Sequence record: OQ025076.1
Length of the DNA: 64,000 bases
Origin: Escherichia phage vB_EcoP_YF01
Reading direction: 5' to 3' (one strand)
The notes beneath the pieces are model-generated. The model was given only the letters and a program-made list of their open reading frames with translations. It did not search any database and was not told the DNA's origin. Shown here one piece after another: positions 56,683 to 58,713 of the stretch (the stretch's first letter is position 1; each line of letters opens with the position of its first letter). Position numbers and translations under genes: made by a program.

Positions 56683-58713
56683 TTAACCTCTATTCAATGA
56701 ACATTTAGGAGAATTACAATAAACTTGATTCATAGAACCAAGCGTACAACTTTCAGCATCGCGCCACGGAATCTGCTTAAAACACTCTGAGCAGTAGCCG
56801 AGGGTTGACCACATGGCTTTGGTGAAGTCAGTGCTTCGGTTTCCGTCGAAGCTGACAACAGTTTTGCGGAGAGCTGTTCGTGATTCAGGAAACACACCTG
56901 CTTTCTCAGCAGGTTCCTCCTTTTTTGGCTTAGTTGAGATTGCAAAAATACTGTTGCTACGTTTCTCAACATAAGCATCAACAACATCCTCCAGAGTGAT
57001 GCCTGTCTGTTTCGCTGAGGAAGGTAATACAGTCATACGACCGATCATATCTTCAGTTACACGTAAAGCAAATTCAGGACGACGGGCGTTTGTTGTATCT
57101 GTTGCTTTAATCCAGACATAACCATCTTTGATCGTAGCATTAGATACCTTCTTCTTTACTTCTACAGCGCAGACTTTACAGATATCTTCACCACGAAGAC
57201 GACTGAGTTCCTCATCAAACTCGTTCTCTGTTTTAACTTCACCGCAGATTTCACAAACACCAATAGGAGTCTCCTCCTCTTCTTCATCTTTAGGTTTAGT
57301 CAAACCTTCCAGACATTCAGGGTGCCAGTAGCACTGATATGCGAAGACTGCTTTAGGTGCATCCTTCCAATCAATGTGTTTGTCACAACCACCGCAATCA
57401 CCATGAGAGTGTGCTTCCCAGAATTTACGAGTGATAGTAACGCCATTCTTATTGACGAAACTATCATTCATGTCAAAAGGGATATCATCATCAAAGTCAG
57501 CAGTAGTAGACTCAGGCTCCTTTTTCTCCAGAGATGGGTCAACAAAACGACCTGCTGTGATCACTAAACGAACCATAGCATTAACTTCGGAGATGCAGGA
57601 TACTGTCCCACGGTAAACAATTTTAGGGTCTTTCAGGGCATCCTGATAAGCCTTAATGTCTACGTTATGAACATCACCTTCGATATACTCTTGAGATTTC
57701 TCATCGTAGATATAACCAATCATCTTACCACGAGAAGGAACAGCACCAGCTGTTGCATAAGGAACAAACTCATGTGGTGTGATTTCCACAGTCATATCGC
57801 GGCGAATGTCAATGTTTCGATCGCTTGCGATTTTGTTTTGACTTACCACTGCGTTTCTTCGACGAACGTCTGCCGCTGTCACTCCCGGCTTCGTGTCGTA
57901 AGGATTGCTTGTACTGCTTTTTGAGGAACTTTGATAATTGCTTTGGCTGTAGTTGTTCGAGTAGTAATTGCCCCAACGATTGATTACCGTAAAAACCGGA
58001 AGCTCGTGGGCGACCTCTTCAACTAGAGTCATACTGTTGTTTGACATGTTAAAGATATACTCTGTACCAACTTTACATTCAAAGTGCTCATCAATTCGGT
58101 TTTTGTGAGACTTAGAACGCTTCAGAATCCACATCAACATGTCTTCTTCAGAAGCACCAAACCAATCTCTGTTACAACGTGCGAGATGGAAAGGACGCTC
58201 TTCGTTGCGGATGATATGAAGGCGGTTATCAGAAGCATCATGCCAGATTAAGGTGAAAGCACCATCCAGCTTTTGAATAGTCTCTGCTGCACCAATAGTG
58301 TTAATAGAGTGGCAGATATTCTCACTATCTACCTCGAAGTTTTTACTGTCAGGTAACAGGTCTTGGTCCATCAAGGTTCCGTTATGAACCAGAGTGATGT
58401 TACCATGTTGGAAAGGATGGGCGTTCTTGGCGTTAACTGCACCTTTCGTTGCATGACGGCTGTGACCAACAATCCATGAAGGCGCTACAGTGTAAGCTGT
58501 TTCACCAGTGGTGTGCTTCTTGTACTCATCTTGTAGGATGAATGCGAAAGAAGGAAGAGCTTCTTTATAGGTGAAGACTTCCTTAGTGCTCTTACGCTGA
58601 CCAAAGATACCAGAGGAATGTTGTCCTCGGAACACTCCAGCATAAAAGAGTTGGTTGAATACGTCTAAATCAGTGCTTGACAGATTACCGCCAGCTAATA
58701 CGATGCCACAAAT
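56683..58713 (-). CDS. Class II (Ntn) glutamine amidotransferase-like protein with C-terminal multi-zinc-ribbon extension; probable AUU start
   Basis: N-terminus reads (I)CGIVLAGG...FRGQHSSGIFG with GHSRHATKG, NAHPF and VHNGTL blocks; the Cys codon (58708-58710) is upstream of the ORF-track GTG and preceded only by ATT and a stop; C-terminal half has several CxxC pairs. Confidence 0.7.
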   Translation of the reverse strand: MCGIVLAGGNLSSTDLDVFNQLFYAGVFRGQHSSGIFGQRKSTKEVFTYKEALPSFAFILQDEYKKHTTGETAYTVAPSWIVGHSRHATKGAVNAKNAHPFQHGNITLVHNGTLMDQDLLPDSKNFEVDSENICHSINTIGAAETIQKLDGAFTLIWHDASDNRLHIIRNEERPFHLARCNRDWFGASEEDMLMWILKRSKSHKNRIDEHFECKVGTEYIFNMSNNSMTLVEEVAHELPVFTVINRWGNYYSNNYSQSNYQSSSKSSTSNPYDTKPGVTAADVRRRNAVVSQNKIASDRNIDIRRDMTVEITPHEFVPYATAGAVPSRGKMIGYIYDEKSQEYIEGDVHNVDIKAYQDALKDPKIVYRGTVSCISEVNAMVRLVITAGRFVDPSLEKKEPESTTADFDDDIPFDMNDSFVNKNGVTITRKFWEAHSHGDCGGCDKHIDWKDAPKAVFAYQCYWHPECLEGLTKPKDEEEEETPIGVCEICGEVKTENEFDEELSRLRGEDICKVCAVEVKKKVSNATIKDGYVWIKATDTTNARRPEFALRVTEDMIGRMTVLPSSAKQTGITLEDVVDAYVEKRSNSIFAISTKPKKEEPAEKAGVFPESRTALRKTVVSFDGNRSTDFTKAMWSTLGYCSECFKQIPWRDAESCTLGSMNQVYCNSPKCSLNRG

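Follow-up and report, generated by a model that had tools for sequence, protein, structure and literature searches.

In the 64,000-nucleotide stretch of the Escherichia phage vB_EcoP_YF01 genome analysed here (OQ025076.1; hereafter the window), gene 83 (56683..58713, minus strand; 676 codons plus stop) encodes the orthologue of gp83 of Escherichia phage phiEco32 (phi32_83), a protein predicted to join a complete class II N-terminal-nucleophile (Ntn) glutaminase to a modular, acidic tail of about 430 residues. In the textbook picture of class II glutamine amidotransferases, the glutaminase feeds its ammonia to a synthase attached covalently within one fused enzyme, and no such synthase is present in gp83. 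We tentatively favour the reading that gp83 is a glutamine- or gamma-glutamyl-processing subunit of the 'amidoligase' module found in phiEco32-type phages, with a tail that docks to proteins. If the tail does dock the glutaminase head on a separate ligase, gp83 would be, to our knowledge, the first class II amidotransferase to act in trans, and it offers the most tractable entry into a conserved early module of eight to ten genes. The original prediction, of an amidotransferase fused to a long zinc-ribbon-rich C-terminal region, had been placed at 56683-57780, a span that covers residues 312-676 only; the gene as a whole extends to 58713.

The 6.1-kb region around gene 83, in which all genes lie on the minus strand, is 97% identical at the DNA level to phiEco32 and to some 70 other Kuravirus genomes, and the window protein matches phiEco32 gp83 by tblastn over residues 1-676 with 98.8% identity. 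The phiEco32 protein (ABY52884.1) is annotated as a 676 amino acid (aa) 'glutamine amidotransferase', and its gene shares the ATT start and the neighbouring genes of the window copy; the window differs in having an HNH homing-endonuclease gene directly after the gene 83 stop codon. The ATT start codon (58713..58711, minus strand) is preceded, 7 nucleotides upstream, by a Shine-Dalgarno sequence, AGGTGGA (58721..58727, minus strand). The mechanical list of open reading frames had begun the gene at a GTG at 58635 (56683..58635, 650 aa), with loss of the catalytic Cys. Reading in frame upstream of this GTG yields ...TAG AAA ATT TGT GGC ATC GTA..., translated from the ATT as I-C-G-I-V-L-A-G-G, and the 26 residues upstream of the GTG fit the family consensus MCGIVLAGG...F..L.Y...FRG. 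The ATT codon, the Shine-Dalgarno sequence and the spacer between them are identical in Nieuwekanaalvirus KBNP1711 (start codon at 301..303 of locus L007), whose RefSeq orthologue begins 45 codons late. On this comparative sequence evidence, the true start of gene 83 is the ATT at 58713 and the Cys nucleophile is residue 2. Any other start removes the catalytic Cys, and gene callers consequently shorten gp83 to 650, 627 or 563 aa; database versions of all three lengths exist without this residue, and the 563-aa version (P0001), which begins at an internal Met, represents 211 member sequences. The ATT start has thereby led to widespread mis-annotation of the gp83 family.

Initiation at ATT may make translation of gene 83 low-level and sensitive to initiation factor 3. 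The gp83 orthologue of phage SU10 is listed under 'early gene products' in a proteomics table (PMC4281155), which indicates that the protein is made during infection. RNA folding around the ATT start gave a regional energy z of -1.16, without significance, and promoter and terminator scans around gene 83 were uninformative. A GC-rich hairpin (GGUGCCUC ... GGGGCAC; 58745..58790, minus strand) lies within the 79-nucleotide spacer between the stop codon of the upstream Amidoligase_2 gene and the gene 83 Shine-Dalgarno sequence; its stem is kept in KBNP1711 and its loop differs there.

The first 250 or so residues had been read as a glutaminase, and this is borne out. Residues 1-244 (57982..58713, minus strand) make up a class II (Ntn) domain of about 245 residues, matched by Pfam GATase_6 (1e-14) and by Foldseek and modelled with a predicted local distance difference test score (pLDDT) above 90; matches to Pfam GATase_6/7/4 are restricted to this N-terminal domain. 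A Foldseek search against the PDB reveals the four-layer alpha-beta-beta-alpha Ntn fold, with GlmS, PurF, AsnB and EgtC at E values of 1e-12 to 1e-9 and a TM-score of about 0.7 normalised to the isolated domain. The key residues are Cys2, the nucleophile, together with R86, N111-G112 and D129. The latter three elements are invariant in alignments of 108 and of 59 homologues and align, in the family profile, with GlmS R73, N98-G99 and D123; C2 is retained in at least 90% of sequences, and most homologues start with MCGIV. In GlmS the Arg holds the alpha-carboxylate of the substrate, the Asn-Gly pair forms the oxyanion hole and the Asp holds the alpha-amino group. Conservation of residues with these established roles implies that gp83 would act either on free glutamine or on a molecule whose gamma-glutamyl end is free. 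Judged by its conserved residues, the head has everything that a class II Ntn glutaminase requires and is catalytically competent, and the invariance of its catalytic residues across the family points to strong selection on the enzyme.

The head thus shares with GlmS, PurF and AsnB the glutaminase fold, the N-terminal Cys nucleophile, the Arg, the Asn-Gly pair and the Asp; unlike those enzymes, gp83 has no SIS, PRTase or AsnB synthetase domain and no visible ammonia channel, and has the tail instead. Scores against the GlmS equivalog models are far under cut-off (42.9 bits against 381 for NF001484, 35.8 against 418 for TIGR01135), with only residues 2-198 aligning, and the PurF, AsnB and EgtC equivalog models likewise score gp83 far under cut-off and align with its glutaminase part only. 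Record names such as 'L-glutamine-D-fructose-6-phosphate aminotransferase' and 'purF' were rejected as over-transfers, given these scores and the absence of SIS domains, and the names 'GlmS' and 'PurF' should be abandoned for the gp83 family.

That no synthetase domain follows the glutaminase had been part of the original prediction, and none was found with Pfam, NCBIfam or the PDB in gp83 and 58 diverse relatives, or by a scan of the PHROGs; nor does the tail belong to a separate gene, the other way in which that proposal might have failed. Two genes or a frameshift were considered and rejected, as the open reading frame is uninterrupted and homologues with identities down to 31% align over 99% of its length. 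The tail has no family in Pfam (gp83, 58 relatives and the isolated modules, to E 10), in NCBIfam or in the PDB, by sequence and by profile, and the PHROG 4736 profile match to gp83 extends through the second of its zinc modules (module B, below). Structure prediction and a structural-homologue search of the C-terminal half, both proposed at the outset, returned an oligonucleotide-binding (OB) barrel and zinc modules and no synthase.

The AlphaFold2 models, run on the 108-sequence alignment and metal-free, were judged by pLDDT and DSSP. The full-length model has a mean pLDDT of 87 and a predicted template modelling score (pTM) of 0.47, and a model of the tail only (residues 278-676) reaches a pLDDT of 89; the combination of low pTM and high pLDDT is that expected of rigid domains on flexible linkers. 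After the head comes a disordered Ser/Asn/Tyr-rich linker (residues 245-279; 57877..57981, minus strand) of low conservation and occupancy, with pLDDT below 50 over residues 245-276. It leads into a helix (280-298) and a predicted five-stranded OB-fold barrel (308-391; helix and barrel at 57538..57876, minus strand), followed by an acidic disordered linker (residues 393-417; 57463..57537, minus strand) with a net charge of -7 and pLDDT below 50 over residues 398-413. Two predicted zinc modules, A1 (residues 418-472; 57298..57462, minus strand) and B with its helix (484-526; 57136..57264, minus strand), precede a small beta-rich domain (527-595; 56929..57135, minus strand), and a third disordered stretch (602-613) separates the latter from the last zinc module, A2 (616-676; 56686..56868, minus strand). 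The small beta domain is modelled with pLDDT 88-96, has an alignment occupancy of 0.33-0.41, being present in about a third to 40% of the family, and is unrelated to the OB domain by profile comparison; no fold assignment was obtained for it. In these models the tail is non-catalytic in appearance. The zinc-ribbon array originally envisaged for this region stands as far as its conserved zinc-binding pairs are concerned, but the array is not continuous, since the tail of some 430 residues also holds the OB barrel, the small beta domain and the three disordered linkers.

All six Cys/His motifs from which that array had been proposed are present in the translated open reading frame, and they pair into three conserved sites. 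In 676-aa numbering they are C440-x2-C443 (HGDCGGCDKH), C461/H464-x2-C467 (CYWHPEC), C487-x2-C490 (CEICGEV), C512-x2-C515 (CKVCAVE), C641-x2-C644 (CSECFKQ) and C666-x4-C671 (CNSPKCS). Conservation was scored on the alignment of 108 homologues, which share 29-70% identity with the window protein, and each of the three sites has four Cys/His ligands in two close pairs that are conserved among them. The ligand columns of module A1 (C440, C443, H464 and C467) are kept in 98% of sequences, in a region modelled with pLDDT 88-95; the H464 position is a Cys in 69% of the family, and C461 is not conserved. The ligands of module B (C487, C490, C512 and C515; pLDDT 83-95) are kept in 92-94%, and those of A2 (C641, C644, C666 and C671) in 82-88%. 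Counted over 119 homologues, three zinc sites are present in 93, two in 14, one in 9, four in 2 and none in 1. Cys makes up 6.1% of tails against 1.4% of N-terminal domains, and the Cys/His pairing in these alignments is far beyond chance.

Profile-profile comparison of A1 with A2 returns a probability of 99.1% (E 5e-19), identifying the two as true duplicates of a module of about 50 residues, with the consensus G-x3-T-[KR]-x2-W-x5-7-C-x2-C-x3-I-P-[WF]-x-[DE]-A ... C-x2-C. The A1 signature consists of G424, T428 and W432, then the CxxC pair, I447 and YWHxxC. Module B is weakly related to the A modules by the same method (probability 40-71%). According to the DSSP strings, a helix starts at the second ligand pair of every site, which suggests that the predicted modules are treble-clef-like, in contrast to classical two-hairpin ribbons.

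Comparison with known zinc fingers supplied leads only. The isolated modules had no match above cut-off among curated zinc-finger families, and their sub-threshold Pfam matches were inconsistent, with LIM scoring 16-18 bits where the cut-off is 22.9 and other families appearing sporadically; the A module matched PARP1 fingers with an E value of 0.015 and an hhalign probability of 44-50%. Assignment of the modules as PARP-type or LIM fingers was rejected, as the similarity falls under every threshold. A1 resembles LIM and PARP treble-clef fingers in its C-x2-C ... [FYW]-W-H-x2-C-[LF] pattern, in the second ligand pair at a helix start and in the E value of 0.015 to PARP1 F1/F2; it differs from them in a spacing of 20 residues against 28-30 in PARP, and in most family members the sites are Cys4; homology is not established. 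A hidden Markov model of the A module matches the gp83 protein alone in the window and in each related locus examined.

The barrel at residues 308-391 is a predicted five-stranded closed beta barrel with an inter-strand helix, as in OB folds, and its conserved residues are Y319, G329, G333, Y343, E345, H349 and G369. Its best structural matches are the OB domains of S1, of SSB (which binds single-stranded DNA) and of DNA ligase. A Foldseek search of the tail against viral models returned the family first (Cronobacter phage GAP52, Aeromonas phage LAh_9), followed by weak matches to OB-containing phage proteins, including SSBs and DUF669. The barrel matches no Pfam family and has no sequence homology to the SSB or S1 families, and its interpretation as a diverged SSB was rejected for want of sequence support (hhalign probability 0.9% against E. 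coli SSB). Y343, E345 and H349 alternate along strand 3, on part of the usual OB ligand face; what is conserved on this face is Tyr, Glu and His in place of basic residues. The median net charge of the tail across the family (region equivalent to residues 280-676) is -21. By part, the medians are -3 (barrel), -5 (A1) and -4 to -8 (linkers), and A2, at +3, is alone in being mildly basic. The conserved Glu on strand 3 and the acidic charge argue, though not decisively, against a polyanionic ligand. Together with the SSB-tip peptide described below and the LIM-like sub-threshold zinc matches, these features lean, if not conclusively, towards protein docking over nucleic acid as the targeting role of the tail.

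The acidic linker between the barrel and A1 contains TTADFDDDIPFDMND, within which DFDDDIPF (residues 406-413; 57475..57498, minus strand) reproduces exactly the eight C-terminal residues of E. coli SSB and lies in the segment with pLDDT below 50. The E. coli SSB acidic tip, MDFDDDIPF, recruits at least 17 partner proteins (PMC10018359). DFDDDIPF is the sole such motif in the window. The pattern [DE][DE].?[IVLM]PF occurs in 39 of 120 homologues, and among the 32 closest it is found in this same linker in 27. The motif is usually followed by Asp or Glu, its flanks diverge, and many other homologues carry acidic variants, DDIPPFD among them. In E. coli SSB, too, an OB barrel is followed by a disordered linker and then by DFDDDIPF, all eight residues of which match; unlike SSB, gp83 has an acidic barrel lacking sequence homology, a short linker and an internal tip. 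As in SSB the tip follows a disordered linker, but it is not at the extreme C-terminus, being followed by Asp414 and 262 further residues. SSB partners normally grip the alpha-carboxylate of the free C-terminal Phe, so that the internal DFDDDIPF lacks the terminal carboxylate through which the tip is usually recognised. A PDB search with a 30-residue linker peptide found nothing. The copy of the SSB tip is a possible link to the replisome.

A full-length search identified 193 related protein clusters, nearly all of which start with MCGIV and have CxxC pairs towards the C-terminus. By tblastn the gp83 family extends to 312 phage records, comprising 121 from Pseudomonas phages, 93 from Escherichia, 22 from Vibrio and 11 from Aeromonas phages, followed by Proteus, Salmonella, Cronobacter and others. 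This large family keeps an intact glutaminase in which the place of the synthase is taken by a modular, acidic tail, presumably zinc-stabilised and used for docking. Searches with the tail alone reach less far: tblastn found 97 Escherichia and Shigella phages only, a word-indexed search gave three matches, and an exhaustive phmmer search of 1.84 billion representatives returned nine proteins, all of them gp83 family members except P0121. A search with the zinc A-module alignment returned nothing, the query being too short for the word index. The architecture is still present in distant relatives, and the tail is a region whose sequence diverges quickly. The orthologue in Pseudomonas phage tf has 531 aa and one C-terminal zinc site. 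P0121, a metagenomic protein of 1120 aa, was rejected as a relative of the tail: its match to A2 (E 2.6e-9) is spurious, without paired Cys ligands. It contains eight copies of '...GY[AV]S[EQ]CYK.[IV]PW...' and looks like a chance match with carboxypeptidase-regulatory-like repeats.

Gene 83 lies in a module whose order in the window, from upstream to downstream on the minus strand, is gp88, gp87, COOH-NH2 ligase type 2, gp85, Amidoligase_2, gene 83, the HNH insert, DUF7195, gp81, a RimK-like ATP-grasp ligase, three small open reading frames, a GGACT cyclotransferase and the primase-helicase. The COOH-NH2 ligase type 2 (gp86 homologue; 60520..61326, minus strand) matches PF14395 (2e-8), a family named after phiEco32, and phrog_3815. 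Amidoligase_2, a GCS2/GS-like carboxylate-amine ligase (gp84 homologue; 58793..59896, minus strand), matches PF12224 (7e-8) and phrog_7469 (2e-157). DUF7195 (gp82 homologue; 55953..56186, minus strand) is a 77-aa protein matching PF23825 (4.7e-17); the RimK-like ATP-grasp ligase with a C-terminal extension (gp80 homologue; 54552..55745, minus strand) has weak RimK/Ddl matches in Pfam and NCBIfam and a phrog_2599 match (7e-188); and the AIG2/GGACT-type gamma-glutamyl cyclotransferase (gp77 homologue; 53410..53829, minus strand) matches PF06094 (3e-17). The same module order is found in phiEco32, Pseudomonas phage tf, Vibrio phage SJSY21 and two phage contigs from metagenomes, with amidotransferases of no more than about 31-34% identity, and phage UFV-P2 has the order seen in the window as well (PMC3890496).

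In five divergent lineages Amidoligase_2 lies directly upstream and DUF7195 directly downstream of the amidotransferase gene; in the window the HNH gene stands between gene 83 and DUF7195. DUF7195 (about 70-79 aa) was located in four related loci (7596..7805 in L003, 9985..10218 in L004, 9631..9852 in L005 and 10742..10981 in L006), and it directly follows the amidotransferase gene in every case examined; in three of all the cases the two genes overlap, which suggests translational coupling. Gene order and overlap make it likely that DUF7195 is a stoichiometric partner or a substrate of the amidotransferase.

The neighbourhood has been discussed in the literature since 2009 (Iyer et al., via PMC10580990). 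As cited there, Iyer, Abhiman, Burroughs and Aravind proposed a block to superinfection by cell-wall modification, carried out by the amidoligase and GATase of phiEco32; another paper cites the same work for immunity to superinfection that arises from secondary metabolites or from changed gene expression (PMC11706807). Our literature search, which covered neither Iyer et al. 2009 nor the 2008 phiEco32 paper of Savalia et al., turned up no experimental work on gp83 or its tail. The protein and the module are already known and annotated, and the tail architecture is not described in databases. Within the literature searched, the OB barrel, the duplicated zinc module of about 50 residues, the SSB-tip motif and their place in the standard form of a large phage family are new. 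The original prediction had recognised neither the identity with phiEco32 gp83 nor the discussed neighbourhood, the OB domain, the zinc-module duplication, the SSB-tip motif or the ATT start.

In the reading that we tentatively favour, gp83 would be the processing subunit of the module, whose other members are two GS/GCS-like carboxylate-amine ligases, the RimK-like ATP-grasp ligase, DUF7195 and the gamma-glutamyl cyclotransferase. The conserved catalytic residues, the lack of a synthase domain and the synteny kept in five divergent lineages speak for it. The tail would stand in for the covalent synthase domain by docking the head on one or more protein partners, and ammonia from glutamine would then amidate, in trans, a carboxylate that a ligase encoded nearby has activated with ATP. 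As ligase partner, Amidoligase_2 next door is the foremost candidate, and DUF7195, encoded directly at or overlapping the 3' end of the amidotransferase gene in the other lineages examined, would be the likely stoichiometric one; the end product may be a peptide or a cell-wall type modification, as proposed in the literature. A docking adaptor is suggested by the disordered linkers between small rigid domains, the acidic charge of the tail, the Tyr/Glu/His patch on the barrel and the conserved DFDDDIPF, and also by the variable number of zinc sites (0-4), the sub-threshold LIM-type matches and the restriction of the A-module model to gp83. The proposed logic is analogous to that of MurT/GatD, a two-component amidotransferase in which a glutaminase is docked on an ATP-dependent ligase: in both cases a glutaminase gene lies beside the gene of a carboxylate-activating ligase, and amidation would proceed in trans. 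GatD and other docking glutaminases differ from gp83 in being class I enzymes with a catalytic triad and in having no such tail, and the gp83 complex is a predicted one.

Several points weigh against this reading. We know of essentially no class II glutaminase that acts in trans on a separate synthase, and two-component amidotransferases use class I glutaminases. The hydrolase EgtC has the same active-site residues as gp83, and ammonia transfer by gp83 is a prediction. In the model, 35 disordered residues follow the head, and nothing resembling a ready-made ammonia channel can be seen. Zinc modules and ligases do not vary together in number, since phage tf combines a single module with the same set of three ligases; the OB fold is similar to those that bind nucleic acids, and the docking partner is predicted from genomic context.

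The resemblance to EgtC leads to a rival that we consider rather unlikely, in which gp83 would be a stand-alone amidohydrolase, a use of the Ntn domain that the original prediction had also raised, or a deamidase: its head would cleave a gamma-glutamyl amide or isopeptide, or deamidate a glutamine carried by a small molecule or protein that the ligases of the module produce, and its tail would bind that protein or peptide, by analogy with EgtC or with the Dop step of pupylation. EgtC/YafJ-type amidohydrolases have the same fold and binding residues and, like gp83, neither a synthase domain nor, in the case of gp83, a visible channel; they are single-domain proteins of about 230-270 residues, unlike gp83 with its long modular tail and its ligase-rich module. 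That GS/GCS-like ligases are accompanied in the module by the small proteins DUF7195 and gp81 and by a gamma-glutamyl cyclotransferase would suit such a hydrolase, as would the acidic multi-module tail, apt for protein recognition, and the module recalls the peptide-tagging systems of Iyer et al. 2009, as cited in PMC10580990. On the other hand, GGACT already removes gamma-glutamyl groups, so that a second gamma-glutamyl hydrolase would be partly redundant, and neither DUF7195 nor gp81 has a C-terminal Gln or Glu, so that a Pup-like tag is not evident. Hydrolysis and ammonia donation are indistinguishable at the sequence level. An altogether different account, which we regard as very improbable, takes the tail mainly as a host-takeover decoy that displays the SSB-tip mimic, and perhaps other motifs, to titrate SSB-interacting proteins, the head being secondary or vestigial. 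The exact match, its conservation in relatives and its position in a disordered acidic linker would fit a decoy, but the head catalytic residues are invariant, two thirds of the family lack the exact motif, and the motif is internal.

The OB fold also raises the improbable alternative of a nucleic-acid-directed enzyme, in which the barrel and zinc modules would bind DNA or tRNA, the SSB tip would lead to the replisome, and the product would be an amino-acid or amide modification of phage DNA or tRNA. The structural matches of the barrel to S1, SSB and DNA-ligase OB domains fit this alternative, as do the SSB-like layout up to DFDDDIPF and the weak similarity of the A module to PARP-type fingers; the module always abuts replication genes (primase-helicase), and an Rnl2 gene lies inside it in two lineages, with RtcB and NUDIX genes in one. 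Phages of the Gordonclarkvirinae were described in the BASEL study as remarkably resistant to restriction-modification with no genome-modification pathway known, (PMC11990801); this still unexplained resistance likewise fits a nucleic-acid role. Against that role, the tail is acidic across the family, with a barrel net charge of -3, the conserved residues of the binding face include a Glu, the barrel is not homologous to SSB in sequence, similarities to PARP and LIM fingers fall under every threshold, and the SSB-like tip is internal, with no free C-terminal carboxylate. Moreover, phage tf carries the same module, and yet its virion DNA is digested by RsaI, HpaI, EcoRV, SmaI and HaeIII and presented no difficulty in cloning or Sanger sequencing (PMC3517423), which argues against a general DNA-modification role. 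A more specific version, less probable again, would make the tail an SSB-like tether (OB barrel, linker, SSB tip and treble-clef fingers) that takes glutamine-dependent, amide-forming enzymes to the replisome or SSB hub, and the module a chemically new, replication-coupled system of nucleic-acid modification; this would account for the restriction resistance of the Gordonclarkvirinae and, if true, would be important.

Further observations concern the surroundings of gene 83. The HNH insert is a gene for a 168-aa HNH_3-type homing endonuclease (56173..56679, minus strand) that begins 4 nucleotides after the gene 83 stop codon and splits the gene 83/DUF7195 pair, which is universal elsewhere. 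It is absent from phiEco32 and most kuraviruses, which align to the region in two pieces with 92% coverage, and a related copy was found only in KarlSchell_Bas89 (80% identity); in UFV-P2 an HNH gene lies on the opposite side of the amidotransferase. Residues 316-397 of the ATP-grasp ligase form an 82-residue C-terminal extension that matches phrog_20552 (1.8e-57), indicating a stand-alone protein in other phages. In the distant loci L004 (13424..14389) and L006 (12681..16863), RNA-repair and nucleotide genes separate the ATP-grasp ligase gene from that for GGACT: both loci have an Rnl2-type RNA ligase gene there, and L006 alone also has RtcB, two NUDIX genes and one AAA_28 gene; such genes inside the module may reflect an RNA-related role or mere clustering in the early region. 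The module is bounded upstream by two large conserved open reading frames, gp87 (323 aa; 61319..62290, minus strand) and gp88 (398 aa; 62301..63497, minus strand), which have no Pfam or NCBIfam match and belong to PHROGs of 'unknown function'; phage tf and the distant contigs have comparable ones, of about 290 and 310 aa, in a similar position.

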